Positions 1-41,191 of a DNA stretch of 42,559 nucleotides are shown here, in pieces. A model generated the notes under the pieces. That model saw only the letters and a program-made list of their open reading frames with translations. It made no database searches and was not told where the DNA came from. This DNA is from a virus (taxonomy: Duplodnaviria; Heunggongvirae; Uroviricota; Caudoviricetes), in the IMG/VR virus record IMGVR_UViG_2872698443_000008; one strand, given 5' to 3'. Position 1 is the first letter of the stretch. Each line of letters opens with the position of its first letter. A program made the position numbers and the translations under genes.

Positions 1-2754
1 ATGAACTGGATTGGTTCTCGGTGGTGGAAATTCGACTTCCATAATCACACTCCGGCATCGGACGATTATGGAAAAGGCCCTAATCAGGCCCAGTATATGC
101 AGATCACTCATAAAGATTGGCTGCTCAACTACATGCGACAAGGCATCGATTGTGTCGCTGTCACGGACCATAATTCAGGCGCTTGGATTGATCCGCTCAA
201 GCAGGCACTCAAGGAACTGGCATCTGAGAGTCATGAAGATTATCGACCACTCTACTTATTCCCAGGTGTTGAGCTTACTGTTCAGGGGAATATCCATATT
301 CTGGCCATTTTCGGCGAAGACAAGACAACCTCTGATATCGACTCACTGCTTGGTGCGGTCAGGTATCGCGGCACCAAAGGAAAGAGCGACGGCTGCTCTG
401 AATGCTCAGCAGTTGAGGTGATCGACGAAATTGCTAGGTCAGGAGGACTTGCAATACCTGCTCATGTAGATCAGGCTAGCGGACTTTTTACGGTCTGTAC
501 GGGCAACACACTAGAGCAGGTGCTTGACAACAAATGTGTTTTTGCTATGGAGGTAACGGACCTTGCTAAAGCAAAACCGCAGCTCTATATTGGCAAGAAT
601 TTGAATTGGGCAGAGATTCTTGGAACCGATTCCCATCATCCGTCCGGTACCGGAAATCAACGCTACCCGGGTAGCCATTTCACTTGGGTAAAAATGTCGG
701 AGCCATCTTATGACGGATTACGGCTGGCGCTCGTTGATGGGGCTCTTTCACTGAAGCGGTCGGACAACTTCACTGGTGACCCAAATATCCATGGACAACT
801 TGCCATCGAAAGTATCGTGGTTGATGATGCGAAGTACTTAGGACGAGGGCAATCTTTAACTTGTCAACTGAACCCCTGGCTCAACACTATCATTGGTGGA
901 CGAGGCACTGGGAAATCGACTTCGTTGGAATTCCTGCGGATTGCTCTTAAACGAAAGGGAGAAATCCCCAAGAGCCTTGAAAAGGAATTTACCAAATACA
1001 GTCAAACTTCGAAAGACCGCCAAGATGAAGGGCTGTTAAAAGATTCCACGAAAATAACTGTAGGCTTTCGAAAAGACGGTGGCCGTTTCCGAATCACCTG
1101 GTCTAATACCGACGACATATACAGCATCGAGGAAGAGACCGCTCCCGGAGTCTGGTGTGATTCCGAGGGAGACATAGCACAACGATTTCCTGTCAGGATT
1201 TACAGCCAGAAACAGATATTCGAATTGGCAAAGCATCCCCAAGCACTCTTGCAGGTTGTCGATGATGCCCCGGAGGTCAATCATCGTGATTGGCAGCTTA
1301 AGTGGGATGAACTGGTTTCCAAATATCTCTCGCTTCGCGCCCAAGAGCGTGAAGTTCAGGCTGGGCTTCAGGAAGAATCGGTAACCAAAGGTCAGCTTGA
1401 AGACGTCAAACGCAAACTCGATGTTTTTGAAAAGGCGGGCCACGCGGATGTCCTTAAGGCTTACCAACTCAGACAGAACCAGAGTAAGGCTATGGACTCC
1501 TGGGTAACGACTTGGGAGGATTCCGCCGAACAGGTCCGAGATATTTCTGGAAGCCTACTGCCAGCAGAATTGGATTTACAATATTTCGACATTGGGAATG
1601 CGGATGACAAAGAACTCTTCGATACCATCAAGGACATCCGTGCGACGTTTGAGAAGCTTCAGACAGAGATGAACTCGATCGCGCAGCGGATTGATGATGT
1701 GAAGAACTCATGGAATCAAACTCGATCAGACTTGGGAATATCGAAAAGAATTACAGCGGCGAGCCATGAATACAACGCCCTCCTCGGTCAACTCAGCGCA
1801 GCAGACGCAGGTGATCCATCTGCATATGGTGTTCTGGTTAAGCAGCGACAAGATTTCGAAGATAAGCTCAAGGGATTCGACAAAAAGAGAGAAACTCTTG
1901 CGCAGCATCAGAAGAGCGCGGAAGAATACTTGGTCAAACTCCATGAGCATCGAGCATTGATAACCAAACTTCGTGAGGACTTTCTCAAGGATACTCTCGT
2001 CGGCAATTCATATGTACAGATCAATGTCATTCCGTTTGGAAACAAGATTACGGTTGAGGAAGAATTCCGTAACCTGATCGGCCGCAGTGGTGGCGGATTT
2101 GACCGCGACATTGGAGTTGTTGACGGGGATGAGGGCTTGCTGGCTTATTTAACGCAAGACCAATCCAATACTATGGATGATAAAATTGAGAAAATAAAAT
2201 CATCGCTACTTGCAATCCATGAAAACGATACTATGGCGGTGGAATCCTGCAAAGATCGACGTTTTGTATCCCTCATTCAGGGGCTAACTCCGGAACAGAT
2301 AGATCGAATTCAGTGCTGGTTTCCAGGCGATTCTCTGGATATCAGATATAGCCTCAAGAACGGCGAGAGTTTCAAACCCGTAGAGCAAGGATCTCCGGGG
2401 CAAAAAACGGCGGCTCTCCTTGCATTTATCCTTTCATATGGCAATGAGCCTCTTATACTTGATCAGCCTGAGGATGATCTTGATAACCACTTAATCTATG
2501 ATCTTATCGTGACGCAATTGCGTGAGATCAAACAAAAACGGCAGGTTTTAGTAGTCACGCACAACGCTAACATCGTCGTGAATGGTGACGCGGAAAACGT
2601 CATTGCCCTTGATATTCGGTCTGGTCAAACCAGAATTGTGGCGCAAGGGGGTCTTCAAGAACCTTCCATACGCGATGAGATATGCCGAGTGATGGAAGGT
2701 GGCAAAGAGGCCTTTACCCAAAGATATAAACGAATCAATGCAGCAATCAAATAG
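1..2754 (+). CDS. PHP-domain phosphoesterase fused to ABC/SMC-type ATPase with central coiled coil (917 aa); candidate single-gene defence protein
   Basis: Full-length ORF from position 1. N-terminal PHP motifs FDFHNHT, VTDHNS, PAHVD, GTDSHH. Walker A GGRGTGKST at nt 895-921. Long E/K/Q/L-rich region (aa ~400-700). C-terminal ABC signature-like SPGQKTAAL, Walker B LILDQPEDDLD (nt ~2461-2490), H-loop VVTHNANIV. Confidence 0.8.
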   Translation: MNWIGSRWWKFDFHNHTPASDDYGKGPNQAQYMQITHKDWLLNYMRQGIDCVAVTDHNSGAWIDPLKQALKELASESHEDYRPLYLFPGVELTVQGNIHILAIFGEDKTTSDIDSLLGAVRYRGTKGKSDGCSECSAVEVIDEIARSGGLAIPAHVDQASGLFTVCTGNTLEQVLDNKCVFAMEVTDLAKAKPQLYIGKNLNWAEILGTDSHHPSGTGNQRYPGSHFTWVKMSEPSYDGLRLALVDGALSLKRSDNFTGDPNIHGQLAIESIVVDDAKYLGRGQSLTCQLNPWLNTIIGGRGTGKSTSLEFLRIALKRKGEIPKSLEKEFTKYSQTSKDRQDEGLLKDSTKITVGFRKDGGRFRITWSNTDDIYSIEEETAPGVWCDSEGDIAQRFPVRIYSQKQIFELAKHPQALLQVVDDAPEVNHRDWQLKWDELVSKYLSLRAQEREVQAGLQEESVTKGQLEDVKRKLDVFEKAGHADVLKAYQLRQNQSKAMDSWVTTWEDSAEQVRDISGSLLPAELDLQYFDIGNADDKELFDTIKDIRATFEKLQTEMNSIAQRIDDVKNSWNQTRSDLGISKRITAASHEYNALLGQLSAADAGDPSAYGVLVKQRQDFEDKLKGFDKKRETLAQHQKSAEEYLVKLHEHRALITKLREDFLKDTLVGNSYVQINVIPFGNKITVEEEFRNLIGRSGGGFDRDIGVVDGDEGLLAYLTQDQSNTMDDKIEKIKSSLLAIHENDTMAVESCKDRRFVSLIQGLTPEQIDRIQCWFPGDSLDIRYSLKNGESFKPVEQGSPGQKTAALLAFILSYGNEPLILDQPEDDLDNHLIYDLIVTQLREIKQKRQVLVVTHNANIVVNGDAENVIALDIRSGQTRIVAQGGLQEPSIRDEICRVMEGGKEAFTQRYKRINAAIK

Positions 2755-2860
2755 AACGGAGTTGCACTTGAACGGCAATTGCGCTGAGCTCAATTGCCGC
2801 CAATGCTTGGTCGTTAACGTCTGCTCCTGGCACAGGGCTGCTGTTGCAGCCCTGACAACC

Positions 2861-3076
2861 TTAGACTTCAATCGATTCAGAGATCTCTAACGCATCATCG
2901 ACTTCAATGCCCAGATAACGGAATGTGCTTTCCAGTTTCTTATGACCCAACAGAAGTTGAATCACCCGAAGATTCTTGGTCAGCGGACAATAGGTGCAAC
3001 GCCATATTGAACCCTTAAGACTAAAGTGGACCGATATAGTAAGCGTTACACTGACCCGTTGCCAGCATCGAAATGC
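2861..3076 (-). pseudogene. Tyrosine recombinase C-terminal remnant (no start codon, ~70 codons open)
   Basis: Minus-strand translation reads ...TKNLRVIQLLLGHKKLESTFRYLGIEVDDALEISESIEV*, resembling the LLGH...Y box II region of integrases/Xer recombinases. Upstream frame closed by a stop at 3077-3079. Confidence 0.4.
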
Positions 3077-3344
3077 CTAAGCTACGAAAACTCTTTGACG
3101 GACATAATGTTCCTCATGTTTGCCACATGTCTCCGATTGAGCACAACTATAGTCTGCTGATGAGACTAATTATGGCACTGAGCAGACCTGCTCGCTAGGC
3201 GAGATCCGCTGTGAGCGAATTGCAGAGGTCTCGAATATGCTTGATAATAATGCTTGAAGATATAATTGGTATGAGCCTGAAAATTTATTTTTAAAGAATT
3301 ATTAAATACTGCCGATGTTAATAATTATACTAAAAAAAAGGAAC

Positions 3345-3851
3345 ATGGAATTTATGTTAAATTTAGACGAAATGTGCAGCGCATTAAGAAAACAATACTC
3401 TATAACGGCTGGTCAAGATGGTGAGAAATATGCTAGTAGATGGCTGGAAAAATCCAAGTGGAAATTTGAACATGTTGAGCAAGGAATAAATACTTTATCT
3501 GCAAACTTGAAATCATATGGGGGGAAACGCCCCGATTTCATTATTGACGCTGACGAATCCTCTTATATTCTTTTAGATGCGAAGTATCACTCAACAGATG
3601 GGTGTACCTCCTTTACACTTACTGATTGTGAAATAGGAAAGTATAGAGCACTTCAGCAATTCTTAAAAAATGTGTATAGTGATTGTACTTTCGAAGTAGT
3701 CTTTATGGTGTTTCCGAAAGAAAAAAATGGTGACGAATTTACATTTGTGAGTCTAGATGAGTTTGATAAAGGAGAGTGTACGACTCTAGCATCAAAAGAT
3801 GCAACGAAAATTAGTCTACTCTATCGAGATGACTTATGGTTTAAAAGTTGA
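3345..3851 (+). CDS. Small low-GC protein with PD-(D/E)xK nuclease-like motif (about 168 aa)
   Basis: ORF 3315-3851; ATG at 3345 follows AAGGA (ATG at 3354 is an alternative). Motif KRPDFIIDADESSYILLDAKYH (PD ... D-A-K). Markedly AT-rich relative to flanks. Confidence 0.6.
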   Translation: MEFMLNLDEMCSALRKQYSITAGQDGEKYASRWLEKSKWKFEHVEQGINTLSANLKSYGGKRPDFIIDADESSYILLDAKYHSTDGCTSFTLTDCEIGKYRALQQFLKNVYSDCTFEVVFMVFPKEKNGDEFTFVSLDEFDKGECTTLASKDATKISLLYRDDLWFKS

Positions 3852-24750: not shown

Positions 24751-25101
24751 TTACTTAATCCGTTCACGGGCCGTCTTCGCCTTATGACACGGCCAGCACA
24801 GACTCTGTAGGTTACTGTCTGCATCGGTGCCGCCATGCGCTTTAGGGATGATGTGGTCAACGGTTTTCGCCTCGCGCACCACACCGGCACGCAGGCACAA
24901 CTGGCACAGGCCTTTGTCACGCTTCAGCACACGCGCGCGGATAACGTCCCACTTCGAACCATAACCGCGCTGATGACGGGACTGGCCAGACTTGTATTGC
25001 TTCCAGCCTTCGCTTTTGTGGCTTTCGCAGTAGCCTGATGGGTCAGTCGTGGTATGGCGGCAGCCGCGAACGCGGCAGGCTTTTGGGGTTCGTGGAGGCA
25101 T
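24751..25101 (-). CDS. HNH endonuclease (terminase-associated)
   Basis: 116 aa, Cys-rich with ...VDHIIPKAHGGTDADSNLQSLCWPCHKAKT... HNH motif. Confidence 0.85.
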   Translation of the reverse strand: MPPRTPKACRVRGCRHTTTDPSGYCESHKSEGWKQYKSGQSRHQRGYGSKWDVIRARVLKRDKGLCQLCLRAGVVREAKTVDHIIPKAHGGTDADSNLQSLCWPCHKAKTARERIK

Positions 25102-25228: not shown

Positions 25229-25675
25229 TCATTTGAATACAAACTGTTCTGAAAGAATATTATGACAAATATATTTCGCCTGAATACTATTATCTCTCAT
25301 TCTAATATATTCTTTGTGGGCAACAGATAAAGAACGACAACCGCTGTTTACACGTGGGTATTTTTCCAACATATGTTCGCATATCAAAAAAGCATTATTA
25401 ATAGCATTTAATTTATGGCTTAACTCTCGTAGCTCGGCCCTTTTTTCAATACGAACATTACGACTAAGAGATAAAGGTAGCTGTGATAATGCATTTGAAT
25501 AATCAGCCACTGCCATTTTCAGAGCCATTTTGGCCTTCAGAGCCTCCTGTCGCCGCCAAACATTCATTGCCCAAAAACCTAATGTAACAGTTACAATTGA
25601 ACCTAAAGCCGATACAGCTGACCACACAGTTCCCCAAGGCCAGTTAAGTAATGTATGCCACATCATAACCTCCAC
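25229..25675 (-). CDS. Low-GC membrane-anchored hypothetical protein (moron)
   Basis: 148 aa; N-terminal hydrophobic helix WGTVWSAVSALGSIVTVTLGFWAMNVW; AT-rich, with a 350-bp AT-rich upstream region. Confidence 0.5.
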   Translation of the reverse strand: MEVMMWHTLLNWPWGTVWSAVSALGSIVTVTLGFWAMNVWRRQEALKAKMALKMAVADYSNALSQLPLSLSRNVRIEKRAELRELSHKLNAINNAFLICEHMLEKYPRVNSGCRSLSVAHKEYIRMRDNSIQAKYICHNILSEQFVFK

Positions 25676-26581: not shown

Positions 26582-27041
26582 TTACCACCCCACCAGCCTC
26601 TTTAAACCGGGAAATCAGGTCACCGATTTTATGTTCATACTGACCGTAACCTGCACCAGGTAACGACGCCCAGATATTGCTGCAACGATCGATAGCCTGA
26701 CGGATATCACCGCGATCAATCATCGGTAAAGCGCCACGCTCTTTAATCTGCTGCAATGCCACTGCGTCCTGGCTTTTGGGGGAGAAGTCTTTCAAACCAA
26801 GCTGTTTACGGTAAGCATCCCACCAGCGTGAAAGAAGCTGATAACGTCCGGCGGCTGTTGATTTGAGTTTGGGGTTTAACGTGACAAGTTTGCGAGGGTG
26901 ATCAGAGTAATCAGTAAACAGTTCGCCGCCAACAATAACATCATAACCGTGGTTACGTGTCGGTTGTCGCCCGTTATCCGTTCCTTCTGACCATGCAACC
27001 ATATCCAGGAAAGCTTTACGCTGGGAATTTAGTACCTGCAT
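26565..27041 (-). CDS. Endolysin (lambda R-like lytic transglycosylase)
   Basis: 158 aa, ...NSQRKAFLDMVAWSEGTDNGRQPTRNHGYDVIVGGELFTDYSDHPR... closely resembles lambda R. Confidence 0.9.
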   Translation of the reverse strand: MQVLNSQRKAFLDMVAWSEGTDNGRQPTRNHGYDVIVGGELFTDYSDHPRKLVTLNPKLKSTAAGRYQLLSRWWDAYRKQLGLKDFSPKSQDAVALQQIKERGALPMIDRGDIRQAIDRCSNIWASLPGAGYGQYEHKIGDLISRFKEAGGVVNEVEL

Positions 27042-27044
27042 AAA

Positions 27045-27380
27045 TTACTCCTTCGAGCTACCAAACTTGTTACCGATTACTCTCATTGCAGCCCCACGAA
27101 TAGCATCGACACCGATCAGCCCCACCCCACCACCAATGGCAACAGAAAGCGATTTAGGCCATCCGACATACTCAAGCGCGGATGCAAAGGTCAACGTCAG
27201 AGCGCCACATAGCAAAATCTCGAGCGTTTTTCGCTTCCAGCCACCACCACCGCCAAAATAGGCGATGCGCAAACCAGCCATAACAATCGACATAATCACT
27301 GCGCCCAGCGGCGTATCTCCACGCCACCAGCTCTGAAACAACTCCAGCCAGTCCGGCCAGGTATTTGGGTTATGAGGCAT
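27045..27380 (-). CDS. Putative holin
   Basis: About 111 aa from internal Met (MPHNPNTWPDW...) chosen because the longer ORF would run through the terminator; hydrophobic segments; immediately upstream of endolysin. Confidence 0.5.
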   Translation of the reverse strand: MPHNPNTWPDWLELFQSWWRGDTPLGAVIMSIVMAGLRIAYFGGGGGWKRKTLEILLCGALTLTFASALEYVGWPKSLSVAIGGGVGLIGVDAIRGAAMRVIGNKFGSSKE

Positions 27381-27420
27381 TTCGTCATCTCTCACCTCGC
27401 GATATTTGCGGGTGCTGTGT

Positions 27421-27449
27421 TGGAAATAAAAAGGCCACGCAACGTGGCC
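27421..27449 (-). terminator. Intrinsic terminator after the methyltransferase gene
   Basis: Minus strand reads GGCCACG-TTG-CGTGGCC followed by TTTTTATTT. Confidence 0.6.
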
Positions 27450-27456
27450 ACCAGAA

Positions 27457-28509
27457 TTATTTCCCCACCAGTTCACTTACCTCTTTCACCGTCTGATTAA
27501 ACCGCTCTGACTCAAGTTCAACACCTAACGCCCGACGCCCCAGCGCCATTGCCGCTTTTATTGTGGAACCGGATCCCATAAAGAAATCAGCAACCAGATC
27601 GCCTTGTCGACTACTGGCACTGATTATTTGCCGGAGCATATCCGCAGGCTTCTCACACGGATGTTTACCCGGGTAGAACTGAACGGGTTTATGCGTCCAG
27701 ACGTCGGTATAAGGCACGGAAACTGATACGGAGAAATAGCGCCGGAGAGTTTTAAACTCATCCAGCAATTCATAATATTTGCGATTCAGTGAATCATAAG
27801 ATGCCACCAGCTGGTGGTGTGGTTGTTCCAGTTGTTGTTCCTGAAACTTCTCTGCCGCTATACGGGAAAACAGTGCCTGCAACTTCCGGTAGTCAGCCTC
27901 ATTCGGCAACTGCCACTGACTGGCACCAAACCAGTGGGAAACCATATTTTTCTTACCAGTGGCTTCGGCAATCTGTTTTGCCGTTATACCCAGTTCGGCA
28001 CGAGCATCCCTGAAATACGATATCAGCGGTGCCATTATGTGCTGTTTGAGTTCCCTTTCTTTTGCCGCATAGCCGTCACTTTTGCCGCGATATGGCCCCT
28101 GGTAATGTTCAGCAAACAGAACGCGCTCTGTGGCAGGAAAATATGCGCGCAGACTTTCTTTATTACACCCATTCCAACGTCCGGACGGCTTCGCCCAGAT
28201 GATATGGTTAAGCACGTTGAAACGTTCACGCATCATGATCTCAATATCAGATGCCAGGCGATGCCCACAGAACAGGTAAAGGCTTCCGGCAGGTTTCAAC
28301 ACCCGCCAGAACTGGGCCAGACAGTGGTCCAGCCACTTAAGGTAATCTTCGTCCCCTTTCCACTGATTGTCCCAGCCGTTGGGTTTCACCTTGAAGTAAG
28401 GCGGATCGGTAACAATCAGGTCAATGGAATCATCAGGCAGGGACTGAATAAAATGCAGGCAATCAGCGTTGATTAAATCAACACTGTTTATTTTTACAGT
28501 ATTTTTCAT
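27457..28509 (-). CDS. DNA methyltransferase (DPPY motif, N6A/N4C class)
   Basis: 350 aa; LIVTDPPYF near N-terminus, FMGSGST near C-terminus; no adjacent endonuclease. Confidence 0.85.
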   Translation of the reverse strand: MKNTVKINSVDLINADCLHFIQSLPDDSIDLIVTDPPYFKVKPNGWDNQWKGDEDYLKWLDHCLAQFWRVLKPAGSLYLFCGHRLASDIEIMMRERFNVLNHIIWAKPSGRWNGCNKESLRAYFPATERVLFAEHYQGPYRGKSDGYAAKERELKQHIMAPLISYFRDARAELGITAKQIAEATGKKNMVSHWFGASQWQLPNEADYRKLQALFSRIAAEKFQEQQLEQPHHQLVASYDSLNRKYYELLDEFKTLRRYFSVSVSVPYTDVWTHKPVQFYPGKHPCEKPADMLRQIISASSRQGDLVADFFMGSGSTIKAAMALGRRALGVELESERFNQTVKEVSELVGK

Positions 28510-28659
28510 GGATCAGTAAGCGTAACTCTGGTAGGCTCACTCTGCTTTTGCGCTAAAGCAGTGGGCCGTGGTTCGCTTGTGACCAGTAGGCATGAGCGAA
28601 TGGCTGGCAGGTGCTACCAACACCCACCAGCCGCCCATTTTCACAGCAGGAAACCGCCA

Positions 28660-28887
28660 TTACTGGCAGCGTCTGAATTTATTCCCGTACCCGCCGTTAT
28701 CCTTCGCCAGACCCGCCAGAACTAACTGAGTCAGTATTAACTGGCACCGGGCTTCGCTTACTCCGGTAGTTCTCGTCATCATGCGTGGCGTTACCCACTT
28801 GTCAGCAGGTAAGAAATGAAGGACTGCGGCGGCGGTTTCTGTCATATCTTGCTGTTTTAGCATGTCTTTTTCCCTTCTGGTTAACAT
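28660..28887 (-). CDS. Small hypothetical protein
   Basis: 75 aa ORF between late-promoter region and methyltransferase. Confidence 0.35.
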   Translation of the reverse strand: MLTRREKDMLKQQDMTETAAAVLHFLPADKWVTPRMMTRTTGVSEARCQLILTQLVLAGLAKDNGGYGNKFRRCQ

Positions 28888-29182
28888 GACATACCAATAA
28901 CTCTTGTCTAAAAAGCCAGCAAGATAAAAAGTCAGTATTCACGACCACCAGCGTGTTTACTGTGCTGCACCAAGTTTACAGGTACAAAAAAACCGCTCAG
29001 CGGCGGGTTTAAGTTGTGTGGCGAAGTAACCACTCTTAACACAGTAATCTAGAAAATGCGGACCGCGTTAGTGATTTTTATCTGTTTTTCCATTATTTTT
29101 TTGCCACACAGCTTAAAACGAAAAATAAAGCAGGCGTTGCCAAACCTCACGGTGACAGTTGGCTTAGAATGAGGACATATTT
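28888..29182. promoter_or_regulatory. AT-rich intergenic region downstream of Q: expected late promoter/terminator region and promoter of the reverse-oriented gene
   Basis: Position after the Q gene; minus-strand hairpin CCGC-TGA-GCGG followed by T7 (about 28986-29003); GAGGA 7 nt before the TTG start at 29183. Confidence 0.35.
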
Positions 29183-30202
29183 TTGGATAAGTTTGATGAG
29201 ATTCATGTAGACATTGAATCTGAGCAGCAAGCCTTCGATTTGCTTGAAAGCTATCTTGATGGTTATGGTTTACCTGACAGTTTAAGTTTCAACGGATGGC
29301 CAAACCTTACCATCAGATTAACCGGTGAAAAATTCAACAGATCGCTAACACCTTCAGTTATGAAGGGATTTGTTGAAATGCAAGCTCAAATCAACAAATC
29401 ATATGCCCTTGCCAAGTACGGTGTCCCTGACGTCCGCAAACTGACCAAAGAAGAACTTGATGCCCTAGAAATAGAAGTTACGGTAGAACAGGGTTCTTCA
29501 ATAGTAGAAATCAACATTGATGGCTTTTTAACCAAACTCACACAGGAACTTGTTGGTAAAATGAACGCAACTGAGATCATGTTTACTGTTCTCGGCGCAG
29601 CAGTCATCTGGGGCGGAGTAACAGTATTTAAACGGTTCTTGGACAACCGTAAAGATATTCGCCTTGCAGAAATTGCTAAGGATGGAGAGAAAGAACATCT
29701 CCGGACTATGCAGATCATGAGCGAGCAAGAAACTAAACGCCTGCGGGTTATTTCAGAAATGATTGCGGAAAAACCACTTCTCGATAACATGGACCGTATG
29801 TCGTATGACGCTAAAACCCAAATGGTCAAATCCTTTGTGCGTTCAGATAACGCTCAAATTGATGGCGTTACTATTGATTCTGAAATGGCGAAAGAGTTGG
29901 TTACGAATGCTCGTAGACGTTCATCAGAAATGAGGATTGATGGTATTTACCGAATTGAAGAAGTCAATAATACTGACCCAGAGAGTTTCAAAGTTAAGGT
30001 CCGACGCGTAGATACCGACCAACGTCTAACCTGCGTAGTTCAGGATGTTTTCCTTGATGAATCCGGAAACAAAGAAGCATTGCAGCGAGCTGAGTGGGAA
30101 AGAAAGCCTGTACATTTGAGCATTAACGCAAAACACGTCGATGGTGACATTAAGTCAGCAGTAATTCTCTATGTTCGAGATGTGGAACAAAAGCCCGAGT
30201 AA
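29183..30202 (+). CDS. Reverse-oriented low-GC protein with single central transmembrane helix (339 aa)
   Basis: Long ORF opposite to all neighbours; TTG start with GAGGA at 29171-29175; central hydrophobic segment ATEIMFTVLGAAVIWGGVTVF. Confidence 0.6.
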   Translation: MDKFDEIHVDIESEQQAFDLLESYLDGYGLPDSLSFNGWPNLTIRLTGEKFNRSLTPSVMKGFVEMQAQINKSYALAKYGVPDVRKLTKEELDALEIEVTVEQGSSIVEINIDGFLTKLTQELVGKMNATEIMFTVLGAAVIWGGVTVFKRFLDNRKDIRLAEIAKDGEKEHLRTMQIMSEQETKRLRVISEMIAEKPLLDNMDRMSYDAKTQMVKSFVRSDNAQIDGVTIDSEMAKELVTNARRRSSEMRIDGIYRIEEVNNTDPESFKVKVRRVDTDQRLTCVVQDVFLDESGNKEALQRAEWERKPVHLSINAKHVDGDIKSAVILYVRDVEQKPE

Positions 30203-30216
30203 TCGGGCTTCAATAA

Positions 30217-30609
30217 TCAATCTTTAATTTCGGGGTCCATCTCTAGACTAATTTCCAGCATCGATAGGCAGCCATCAATAAACCCCTCAGCCATCTGTAT
30301 CTCAATGCGTATTAGTTTCTCATCCTTTTTACGAGCCTTGGCGAGCTTTCTTTTAGAGATACCGTATAGGTAATGGGCAACAAGAAGCGAATGTTCGTCC
30401 GGCCTTTTTTGCCTTAGACGAGCAAGACAACCTTCAATAATTAATGCATCACTATCTGAACATGCCTGACGTGTTTTGCTTGTATAGGGAAGAAGCCCTT
30501 TAAACCCAGCAGCTATAGGAGAATAGTCTACTCCTGAACTATCACTCGCCGCCCATGCTCCCCAACGATCCAGAACCATTTGAATATCACGCATCAACTT
30601 TCTCCACAA
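30217..30609 (-). CDS. Late-gene antiterminator Q (phage 82/21 type)
   Basis: MRDIQMVLDRWGAWAASDSSGVDYSPIAAGFKGLL... resembles Q-family N-termini; true start may be the Met 5 codons in. Confidence 0.7.
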   Translation of the reverse strand: MWRKLMRDIQMVLDRWGAWAASDSSGVDYSPIAAGFKGLLPYTSKTRQACSDSDALIIEGCLARLRQKRPDEHSLLVAHYLYGISKRKLAKARKKDEKLIRIEIQMAEGFIDGCLSMLEISLEMDPEIKD

Positions 30610-30611
30610 AA

Positions 30612-31607
30612 TCAGGCCAGCACGCCAATTGCCAGCGCACGATCGATAAAACGAAATATCAGCTCCAACTGAGAGCCATACTTTTCTTCAAATACCACGG
30701 TATCCGCATGCAGCTCGTCGTGATGCTTTCTGCACAAAGGCAGCACGAAGAGGTCATGCGCTTTTGTACCCATTCCACCCTGACCGTGGCCTATCAGGTG
30801 GTGGGGATCATCTGCAGGCTTTCCACAACATGCACACGGCTGCGTCTTAACCCAGCGCGTGTACTTTTCGTTAACCCAGCGGCGACGTTTGGGACGTAAC
30901 ATAAAAGACTCCGGCGACTCCGGATCCACTTTCAGCGCCAGCACCTTTTTCGCTTTATCCTGGATGATGCTGGTGGCAGGAACCGAAGGCACAAGGTCAC
31001 TTTCCCGGGTGACAGACGGCACAACAGGCTTCGGTAATCTCAGTGCCTTACGGGCTGCGCTTTCCGGTAAGGCATCCGCCAGGTCATTACGAACCAGCCA
31101 CCAGCACAGTTCCGGCATTGTCACAACGTGACTGTCATCAAAACCGAGATCCCGACGCACGACAGACAACACCCAGCGGGCACAGTTATCCGTTGCCATT
31201 GATTCCAGCCGTTCCGTGAATTGATCGCGCAGCTGGTTATCGCAGTGCCAGCACAGACGGATTGCGCCCGGAGCATGTCGCATTGTGGTCATGTTCTCGC
31301 TGTGCCAGCCGGAATGAGGCCACTGACAGCCTTTTTCACGAAGTAACCAGCTTTCAAGACATTCCACGCCACCAGCACGACGGATCACTGCCTCATTACG
31401 GAACACGGCCCGAACGGCAGGATCATCCGCCAGTGGTTGTGATGCCGCCGGAACGGCACCACTGGCAAAAGATGAATAACGTTCCGGCTCAGGCTCCAGC
31501 AGGACACGCCCCTGCATAAACAGGGGCATCAGCTCTGAACCAGGCCTGAATAATACGATCCCCATACGCGGGGCAATTTCAGGGGTCAGTAGTGCTCTCA
31601 CGGTCAC
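30612..31607 (-). CDS. Nin-region protein with C-terminal Cys/His HNH-like motif (DUF968-like)
   Basis: 331 aa, ...CACCGKPADDPHHLIGHGQGGMGTKAHDLFVLPLCRKHHDELH. Confidence 0.55.
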   Translation of the reverse strand: MTVRALLTPEIAPRMGIVLFRPGSELMPLFMQGRVLLEPEPERYSSFASGAVPAASQPLADDPAVRAVFRNEAVIRRAGGVECLESWLLREKGCQWPHSGWHSENMTTMRHAPGAIRLCWHCDNQLRDQFTERLESMATDNCARWVLSVVRRDLGFDDSHVVTMPELCWWLVRNDLADALPESAARKALRLPKPVVPSVTRESDLVPSVPATSIIQDKAKKVLALKVDPESPESFMLRPKRRRWVNEKYTRWVKTQPCACCGKPADDPHHLIGHGQGGMGTKAHDLFVLPLCRKHHDELHADTVVFEEKYGSQLELIFRFIDRALAIGVLA

Positions 31608-32815: not shown

Positions 32816-33138
32816 ACTTTCAGGCCCCTCTCATGTAACCAGTGGGCTGCACGCAGCCTGGCGTTTTCCTCACCGGCAAGCAGTGAGCGGATAATCCCGA
32901 CCGCCTCGCTGTCGTCGTCCTTCACCGCGGTATGAAGCGTGATGCCCCGGGCCACGCCACGCTTTATCGTGATGACGCCTTTTTTCTCCAGTGCGCGAAG
33001 ATGCTCCACCGCTGCATTCACTGAACGGTATCCCAGCATGGTTGCCACCTCCTGATTGGTTGGCGGGAAGCCACGTTCTTTCTGATAAGAAATCAGCATA
33101 TCCAGCACCTGCTGCTGGCATTGAGTTAACGTCGTCAT
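32812..33138 (-). CDS. LexA-type DNA-binding domain protein (no peptidase domain)
   Basis: 108 aa, ...QQQVLDMLISYQKERGFPPTNQEVATMLGYRSVNAAVEHLRALEKKGVI... Confidence 0.6.
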   Translation of the reverse strand: MTTLTQCQQQVLDMLISYQKERGFPPTNQEVATMLGYRSVNAAVEHLRALEKKGVITIKRGVARGITLHTAVKDDDSEAVGIIRSLLAGEENARLRAAHWLHERGLKV

Positions 33139-33788
33139 GCCGCCATCTCCCTGACCAGTTTTTCTGCCTGCTGGCGAACCTGCGCCAGAAAGGCCTCACC
33201 ACATGCCTCAAGTTCATCGCGCCCGATGTAGCTGATTGCCGGTCCCTTCCAGGTCTTGTCGAAAACAGCAATAGCACCAGCGAAGAAAGCGCCTGTCGGC
33301 ACCTGCTTCTCATCCTTCGGGATAAACCAGGCAGGCAGTTCAAAACCAATACGCCCGCGAATAAAAGCAATATGATCTGCATCTTCCGGCCACCACACTT
33401 CGCTGGTGGCAGCTTTGATCAGGAAAACATAGCGCCCGCCTTTATCACGCATGGCACTGGCATGCTTCATGATGTAACGCATGCCGGTGATGTATTGCCC
33501 CTCATGCTGACTGGCGCGGCTGTATGGGGGATTACCAAAGGCAGCACCTTTAAGCTCCGCAAGGCGTTCTGACCAGTCATGCGCCAGCGCGTTGTCTTCC
33601 GCCGTGTAATACGCAGCACATTTGGCGTTATCACCGTCAGTGAACAGATCCAGAACAAACGGGCCAAACAGGGTGTTAATTCCCCAGAAAATGTTGTCCG
33701 GCGTGCGCCACTGATCGCCCACTTCCTTCAGTTCATGGGCTGGTTTGTTCCGCAGTTCCGCCAGCGCCTGGCAATATTTATTACTCAT
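33135..33788 (-). CDS. Phage Dam-like N6-adenine DNA methyltransferase
   Basis: NPPY motif (...AAFGNPPYSRA...); start taken at MSNKYCQ. Confidence 0.85.
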   Translation of the reverse strand: MSNKYCQALAELRNKPAHELKEVGDQWRTPDNIFWGINTLFGPFVLDLFTDGDNAKCAAYYTAEDNALAHDWSERLAELKGAAFGNPPYSRASQHEGQYITGMRYIMKHASAMRDKGGRYVFLIKAATSEVWWPEDADHIAFIRGRIGFELPAWFIPKDEKQVPTGAFFAGAIAVFDKTWKGPAISYIGRDELEACGEAFLAQVRQQAEKLVREMAA

Positions 33789-41115: not shown

Positions 41116-41191
41116 TGGTGCCGATAATAGGAGTCGAACCTACGACCTTCGCATTACGAATGCGCTGCTCTACCAACTGAGCTATATCGGC
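41116..41191 (-). tRNA. thrW: tRNA-Thr (anticodon CGU)
   Basis: Reverse complement reads GCCGATATAGCTCAGTTGGTAGAGCAGCGCATTCGTAATGCGAAGGTCGTAGGTTCGACTCCTATTATCGGCACCA. Confidence 0.9.

Follow-up and report, generated by a model that had tools for sequence, protein, structure and literature searches.

The window analyzed here, 42,559 nucleotides from a tailed virus (Caudoviricetes; IMG/VR record IMGVR_UViG_2872698443_000008), is an SfV-like prophage. It encodes an integrase, an HK97-type head, and a contractile tail, and tRNA-Thr/proA is found at one of its ends; its head, tail, lysis, replication, and integrase modules are all complete. On the minus strand, the genes run in the order antiterminator Q, DNA methyltransferase (MTase), holin, endolysin, and Rz/Rz1. 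Our subject is the MTase gene together with its immediate surroundings: a small winged-helix open reading frame (ORF), a structured RNA leader that adjoins the MTase start codon, and the terminators on either side. A first-pass annotation, made from the sequence alone, had described the gene as an orphan enzyme of the DPPY...FxGxG beta class, lying inside the lysis/late region with its own terminator, and had considered this consistent with an anti-restriction or epigenetic role. The gene and its two signature motifs are as follows.

27457..28509, minus strand: coding sequence of an M.EcoGII-family beta-class N6-adenine methyltransferase, 350 amino acids (aa), ATG start
28396..28407, minus strand: motif IV, DPPY, residues 35-38 (catalytic), by sequence reading
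27568..27582, minus strand: motif I, FMGSG, residues 310-314 (AdoMet-binding), by sequence reading

The motif order is that of a beta-class enzyme, with DPPY N-terminal, a central recognition region, and FxGxG C-terminal, and residues 29-341 match Pfam N6_N4_Mtase (E = 8.5e-42); the class assigned in the first-pass annotation is thus correct. The MTase also matches the PHROG DNA-methyltransferase families (~1e-101) and PADLOC MTase_II (2.6e-152), and the identical gene in RefSeq is WP_021563577.1, named 'DNA-methyltransferase'. Inactivating changes in the catalytic motifs, which that annotation had listed as evidence against its proposal, are not present: DPPY and FMGSG are both intact and the ORF is full length. 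DPPY is unchanged across 16 family members, and F310, G312, S313, and G314 are likewise invariant. Relative to the copy in phage 1720a-02, the dN/dS ratio is 0.08 and, as judged by this comparison, the gene is under strong purifying selection. Against the same copy, 90% of amino acids are identical in the N-terminal catalytic part, compared with 68-77% in the linker and recognition region, and helical secondary structure is predicted at residues 146-257.

No restriction endonuclease was found in the annotated prophage, and its unnamed neighbors have no PADLOC hit, in keeping with the earlier statement that a cognate endonuclease is not nearby. The prophage encodes just two proteins of HNH type, one terminase-associated (24751-25101) and one a DUF968/HNHc_6 protein, and the neighbors of the MTase gene are the winged-helix ORF, a plus-strand ORF of unknown function, Q, and the holin gene. 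A Type II restriction-modification system has its partner endonuclease next to the MTase gene or elsewhere in the same element, and the annotated prophage has none.

Sequence comparisons place the MTase within the characterized M.EcoGII family; it is not an unknown orphan. M.EcoGII (GenBank EGT69837.1, 349 aa) derives from a prophage of Escherichia coli O104:H4 C227-11 and methylates up to 99% of deoxyadenosines in any sequence context (Murray et al. 2018, PMC5778455). The MTase is identical to it at 283 of 349 residues (81%) without domain-level gaps, as measured against a machine-read reference (Supplementary Table S1 of Ochiai et al., PMC11551740) containing optical character recognition (OCR) errors such as NHHIWA for NHIIWA. 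Among cluster representatives the best M.EcoGII match is 92.6% and the exact sequence is absent, so the phage 1720a-02 MTase, named as a close M.EcoGII relative by Murray et al. (PMC5778455), served as a clean proxy; its identity is 94% to M.EcoGII and 81% to the MTase described here. Like M.EcoGII and M.EcoGI, this MTase is a prophage-borne orphan of the beta class, with DPPY, a predicted central helical region, and FxGxG, and it is of nearly the same length (350 versus 349 aa); the ~19% of residues that differ from M.EcoGII are mainly in the linker and the putative target-recognition region. Residues 135-260 align with M.EcoGII without gaps. The dimer-interface segments (M.EcoGII residues 97-110 and 116-140), which are reported to be fully conserved among M.EcoGII and its reconstructed ancestors (PMC11551740), differ in the MTase only at N97, as in the ancestor Anc291, and at V130 (isoleucine in M.EcoGII).

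Identities to the reconstructed proteins are 89% (Anc291), 87% (Anc289), and 71% (SUPREM), and both Anc291 and SUPREM are active and largely non-site-specific in experiments (PMC11551740). The closest site-specific relative, M.PflMI, reportedly falls into the same sequence-similarity cluster and has a similar predicted fold, but it recognizes CCANNNNNTGG specifically, shares only ~27% identity with M.EcoGII, and reportedly has no charged interdomain linker (PMC11551740). Because the MTase is bracketed by the non-specific enzymes M.EcoGII and Anc291 at these levels of identity, its methylation is probably also independent of context, in which case there is probably no 'motif' to assign.

The position of the gene bears on when it would be expressed, and the relevant features of the cassette and its flanks, in the direction of transcription, are as follows.

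30217..30597, minus strand: antiterminator Q (Pfam Phage_antitermQ, E = 2.1e-52; RefSeq annotation)
29020..29095, minus strand: candidate pR' promoter and Q-utilization block, containing CGCGGTCCGCA...TGTTAAGAGTGGTTACTTCGCCACACA / CGCGGTCCGCA...TGTTAAGAGTGGTTACTTCGCC
28985..29010, minus strand: tR'-like intrinsic terminator upstream of the cassette, GCCGCUGAGCGG followed by U7 at 29004-28985
28660..28863, minus strand: small winged-helix ORF, 67 aa (phrog_331; AF2 model)
27423..27449, minus strand: intrinsic terminator separating the MTase stop codon from the start of the holin gene, GGCCACG-UUG-CGUGGCC followed by UUUUUAUUU
27045..27380, minus strand: lambda-family holin, the first lysis gene past the MTase terminator (Pfam Phage_holin_3_1, 2.6e-27; PHROG holin)

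The MTase gene lies between Q and the holin, endolysin, and Rz/Rz1 genes, so the lysis/late location given in the first-pass annotation holds. In a five-phage alignment, the sequence from the upstream terminator onward is common to all, and the terminator is conserved in SfV, Ayreon, cdtI, and 1720a-02; the SfV and Ayreon annotations mark both of the flanking terminators. Only 1720a-02 and cdtI, whose Q is of the same family, share the ~75-nucleotide (nt) block at 29095-29020; it is absent in SfV and Ayreon, which have a different Q, and in 1720a-02 it directly follows Q. From these sequence patterns we infer that the block is likely to be pR' with a Q-utilization site and the terminator its tR', and that the MTase gene is likely the second gene of a Q-dependent late operon. 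The terminator behind the MTase gene has a 7-bp stem (six G-C pairs) and a 3-nt loop (dG of -12.5 kcal/mol), and is kept in 28 of 30 related loci having the same holin. The gene's 'own terminator' therefore stands as a sequence feature, but not as the boundary of a separate transcription unit: a consensus scan found no promoter above chance before the MTase gene, so the terminator does not define an independent unit. A better reading is that, within a single antiterminated operon, it insulates the lysis genes from the MTase gene.

This architecture, compared across 80 loci, one per species, with MTase identities of 62-91%, proved to be general. Q antiterminators of three Pfam families (29, 15, and 15 ORFs) are present at most 2.5 kb upstream, and the first ORF downstream of the MTase gene is a holin gene (five Pfam families) in 38 of 72 loci. 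In the same position, 7 of the 72 loci have a Tad2-like gene (Thoeris anti-defense 2) and another 7 have DUF7823, and the space between MTase and holin seems to collect counter-defense or cargo genes. A kinase, HicA, and a cold-shock protein each follow the MTase gene once (L087-L166).

What is unexpected in the cassette is its leader RNA; its winged-helix partner is so to a smaller extent. The leader comprises the following elements.

28510..28645, minus strand: conserved structured RNA leader, ~135 nt, adjoining the MTase AUG (fold, covariation, and covariance model)
28637-33/28566-62, minus strand: helix P0 (UGGGC/GCCCA), closing a three-way junction with P1 and P2
28632-21/28614-02, minus strand: P1, a long hairpin
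28600-595/28577-72, minus strand: P2
28561-55/28548-42, minus strand: hairpin P3
28541-35/28521-15, minus strand: hairpin P4
28514-11, minus strand: GAUC, followed by the AUG at 28509, conserved as CUGAUC(U/C)AUG

The ~150-nt interval from the winged-helix ORF to the MTase gene folds with a minimum free energy of -62.5 kcal/mol (z = -3.18), and none of 200 shuffled sequences is as stable. The helices were defined on a MAFFT alignment of 49 loci, in which standard pairs occupy 89.4% of 1810 alignment cells, compared with 33-45% when the partners are slid by one to three columns. Nineteen of the 37 pairs are changed on both sides, against 9.0±1.8 in shuffles (0 of 500 reaching the observed value) and 5-12 in the slid controls. 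In P1, 9 of 12 pairs covary (for example, GGCUGG/CCAGCC, GACCGG/CCGGUC, and GAUCGG/CCGAUC), and RNAalifold independently recovers P0 and P1. A covariance model of the leader (R1) gives a single match in each locus, whose end is always the start codon of the MTase gene, with scores of at least 52 bits in 58 loci and no matches elsewhere in the 650 kb searched, which included the whole window. The leader is conserved across genera, including in 18 of the 20 genome loci that have no winged-helix ORF, and its compensatory pair changes extend across Enterobacterales. A scan of IMG/VR with a pattern of the RNA alone returned 80 loci, in 78 of which an M.EcoGII-type gene starts 30-90 nt downstream; of the two others, one ends too early and one contains a deleted MTase remnant.

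Rfam 15 has no match to the leader at E≤1 in the region searched (26900-30700) and none at the gathering score anywhere in the window; the sole Rfam hit in 26900-30700 is a chance-level one at the terminator (27414-27475). Our literature search found no paper that contains the leader sequence or describes the leader or cassette architecture, nor any earlier description of the fixed order Q, tR', winged-helix ORF, leader, MTase, terminator, and holin. Three further ideas about the leader were considered and set aside. A switch pairing between GCUCAU (P2 region) and GUGAGC (5' arm of P4) is broken without compensation by alignment A2 variants. A plausible pseudoknot between UGUG (28645-42) and CACA (28581-78) can pair in 99% of cells, and with both sides near-invariant it has no covariation support. 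A leader peptide from an invariant AUG within AAAUGGGCGG (MGGWW...) is disrupted by 1- to 2-nt indels that shift the frame, and four loci (L129, L134, L136, and L138) alter codons while preserving base pairing; the leader is thus not coding, as substitutions track base pairing and not codons.

The leader ends 5 nt before the AUG, which has no canonical Shine-Dalgarno sequence, and it is the most likely site of a putative control of enzyme amount. Close to its 3' end, 16S rRNA contains GAUCA, to which the UGAUC just before the AUG is complementary; the UGAUC could thus be a weak ribosome-binding element beside P4. It is possible, and we suggest it only tentatively, that the leader, as an element preceding every M.EcoGII-type gene in Enterobacteriaceae and related bacteria, represents a previously undescribed class of cis-regulatory RNA that gates translation of a toxic, non-specific MTase. 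Such an RNA might respond to a small molecule (SAM or SAH, for instance), to the MTase, or to the winged-helix protein encoded on the same transcript. The com/mom system of phage Mu offers an analogy (see also PMC12707154): the anti-restriction enzyme Mom, which modifies adenine and is toxic, is silent in lysogens and made late, and mom is likewise preceded by a small protein gene and by mRNA structure near the start codon. Mom is nevertheless not a methyltransferase and has no sequence or fold relationship with the MTase, and Com is a zinc-finger translational activator, whereas the small ORF here codes for a winged-helix protein and is missing in 20 of 78 loci; leader binding by the winged-helix protein would be a parallel purely by analogy.

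The winged-helix ORF has no Pfam match. Its AF2 model (pLDDT of 88) has three helices and two strands (H-H-H-beta-beta), and Foldseek with this model returns generic winged-helix domains at weak E values (Zalpha, the SelB mRNA-binding domain, TrmBL2, and IclR); certain homologues are named TrmB-family or DprA-like WH. The ORF lies upstream of the MTase gene in 79 of 80 closely related IMG/VR loci, and one HMM iteration found it in 58 of 78 divergent genome loci. Two alleles that are only ~54% identical occur beside MTase genes that are 98% identical (IMG/VR loci L007-L086), which implies that the cassette has recombined internally. The ORF's stop codon lies within a hairpin (28650-28670, minus strand) that is also found in loci L002 and L006; its sequence varies between alleles (GCCAGUAAUGGC in the window, CCUUCAGCAAUGAAGG in SfV) yet stays self-complementary, and in phage 1720a-02 the hairpin and a T-run form a clear intrinsic terminator just before the leader. 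The Photorhabdus and Xenorhabdus copies (L137-L166) keep the ORF with a shorter spacer (76-100 nt).

Taken together, we consider it likely that the cassette provides this SfV-like prophage at tRNA-Thr/proA with late-expressed anti-restriction through M.EcoGII-type N6-adenine hypermethylation. The MTase would methylate adenines with little or no requirement for sequence context. In the lysogen, constitutive transcripts from the late promoter would stop at the tR'-like terminator and leave the gene silent, a silence that we infer only from its position behind that terminator. Upon induction, Q-modified RNA polymerase would pass tR' and transcribe the winged-helix ORF, leader, MTase gene, terminator, and lysis genes, such that replicated phage DNA would be methylated shortly before packaging and, on entering the next host, the progeny may resist adenine-methylation-sensitive restriction of Types I, II, and III. 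The enzyme dose would presumably be kept low, with over-methylation harming DNA function and the leader as the most likely control point. Anti-restriction was proposed for the M.EcoGII family by Murray et al., who reported that lysogens do not express M.EcoGI or M.EcoGII and that the enzymes do harm when expressed, that constitutive M.EcoGII slows growth, and that a plasmid heavily methylated by M.EcoGII transforms 10^4- to 10^5-fold worse (PMC5778455).

The first-pass annotation had left the choice between an anti-restriction and an epigenetic role. Anti-restriction fits the late position and the family; the gene is unlikely to act epigenetically in the lysogen, because it lies behind tR' in a putatively Q-dependent operon and M.EcoGI and M.EcoGII are lysogen-silent. 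For M.EcoGI/II homologues, no signal was seen in the lysogen methylomes of O104:H4 and O111 strains (PMC5778455; PMC6602927), and a comparison of lysogen and cured-strain methylomes, with 'no new methylated motif' taken as refutation, would therefore mislead. A lysogen methylome would be uninformative even with a fully active enzyme; virion DNA after induction, or heterologous expression, would be informative. The MTase itself adds little, being another allele of a family that is characterized, sold as a reagent, and common in E. coli, but reading it correctly alters both annotation and testing, as a late, probably context-independent adenine methylase that should leave no motif in lysogen methylomes. 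Virion DNA may resist many restriction systems yet become exposed to methyl-adenine-dependent nucleases, and the fixed cassette architecture offers a concrete way to test how temperate phages control the dose of a DNA modifier that is toxic to themselves.

Several observations count against this interpretation. The identities to M.EcoGII are approximate, given the evident OCR errors in the reference copy, and with ~19% of positions differing the specificity of the MTase is a prediction; the putative target-recognition region (160-237) is just 77% identical to the M.EcoGII-like copy in 1720a-02. The AF2 model of the MTase, built on a 16-sequence alignment, has a mean pLDDT of only 60, so that the layout of the M.EcoGII family, with a Rossmann catalytic domain and a four-helix-bundle recognition domain connected through a long charged linker, is presumed for the MTase. 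In the late region, a consensus scan for pR' hexamers gave only chance-level sites, and a single-sequence fold of the tR' hairpin is no better than that of shuffles. As for the leader, G·U statistics do not discriminate between the strands (89.4% versus 88.2%), and a full-length R1 match is missing in Photorhabdus (a weak partial match) and Xenorhabdus (none), whose copies may have leaders that are reduced or of another kind.

The least conserved part of the MTase is its central region, and regulatory orphan MTases exist; together with the similar overall fold predicted for M.PflMI (PMC11551740), this would suit a sequence-specific enzyme resembling Dam or CcrM, with a defined motif and an epigenetic role in the lysogen. 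Such an enzyme is nonetheless improbable in view of the far greater identity to M.EcoGII and Anc291 than M.PflMI has to M.EcoGII, the location of the gene behind tR' in the late operon, and the signal-free lysogen methylomes of its homologues. The main substrate in vivo might instead be RNA or single-stranded DNA (ssDNA), such as host or phage RNA or replication and packaging intermediates late in infection, with protection of duplex DNA from restriction secondary. M.EcoGII does act on ssDNA nearly as well as on double-stranded DNA, and on RNA and RNA:DNA hybrids (PMC5778455), and the ancestors have higher RNA activity (PMC11551740), but the RNA activity of M.EcoGII is weaker than its DNA activity (PMC5778455), and the conserved position before packaging and lysis, with Tad2-like neighbors, fits counter-defense; we regard a primary role on RNA or ssDNA as improbable. 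That the gene is a decaying, non-functional passenger of a cryptic prophage is scarcely credible: Murray et al. did call the M.EcoGII host element a cryptic prophage (PMC5778455) and remnants of the cassette occur elsewhere (see below), but here the full-length ORF, intact motifs, low dN/dS, and complete modules of the surrounding prophage all argue otherwise.

A different question is whether the leader acts as a sense regulatory element at all. It could be an antisense or independent small RNA, or a processing or stability element, with the MTase controlled by Q only; the equal pairing statistics on both strands would allow this, as would conservation of the element even where the winged-helix ORF is missing and the lack of a known ligand or partner. 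Yet the element is found at a fixed distance from the AUG and only with the MTase gene (58 of 78 genome loci; 78 of 80 loci in the RNA-only scan), no antisense promoter-like site was found near 28400-28650, and the 3' hairpin and conserved UGAUC lie within the ribosome-binding region, and we think a non-regulatory or antisense leader unlikely. Conservation and covariation are direct results of the alignments; the cis-regulatory reading, and with it any role of the winged-helix protein, would extend them to function.

The prophage contains a second orphan adenine methyltransferase gene, outside the cassette.

33135-33788, minus strand: Dam-family (PF05869) orphan adenine methyltransferase, Pfam E = 9.8e-46, in the early/nin region

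Like the MTase, this Dam-type enzyme has no endonuclease, but it belongs to another Pfam family, is in the early/nin region and not the late operon, has no leader, and is presumably GATC-specific by its family name. The plus-strand ORF at 29183-30202 was considered as an endonuclease or defense gene and rejected, having no match in Pfam, PADLOC, NCBIfam, or the PDB. It encodes 339 aa, matches phrog_6191 of unknown function (E = 1.6e-152), lies 14 nt from the Q stop, wedged between Q and the putative pR', and is found in 5 of 80 closely related loci. The same slot contains two different antisense ORFs in phage cdtI and none in 1720a-02, which suggests a hotspot for cargo genes in the space from Q to its promoter. 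A 145-aa ORF at 25229-25666 (minus strand), between the lysis genes and the HNH/terminase module, matches phrog_6169 of unknown function and has no match in Pfam, NCBIfam, or PADLOC.

The cassette is widespread. Positions 27000-29200 of the window are 100% identical to the E. coli FORC_081 chromosome, and a search of megablast sensitivity finds at least 80% of the gene plus leader in 1161 of 5426 complete E. coli genomes (~21%), where a genome has as many as 8 copies. Phages SfV (orf48), cdtI (orf56), mEp460, and Ayreon encode MTase copies that are 97-98% identical (98% for SfV and cdtI), with the same flanking small ORF, leader, and terminators; these genes are annotated merely as unknown or putative methylases, and the surrounding Q genes and holins differ. 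The M.EcoGII-like gene of 1720a-02 has the same upstream winged-helix ORF, 150-nt leader, and Q family. Stx2c phages carry copies ~90% identical at the DNA level, and in Stx-type phages the MTase gene precedes stx, whereas in the window it directly precedes the holin gene. Protein homologues of 76-84% identity occur in Citrobacter, Klebsiella, Enterobacter, Salmonella, Cronobacter, and others.

The tRNA-Thr gene at 41116-41191 (minus strand) marks the prophage end beside proA, an SfV-type integration site. Outside the cassette, FORC_081 is not fully collinear with the window: the position of the tRNA differs by 34 nt, and at the gene coordinates 765-3518 of FORC_081 translation fails in the window. 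Remnants of the cassette were seen in two places. Locus L184 (2145-2443) has the leader followed by MTase residues 283-348 only, and E. coli E1620 (NZ_CM180509.1, 4415568-4415785) has the leader and the first ~80 nt of the MTase gene beneath a 'terminase' annotation.

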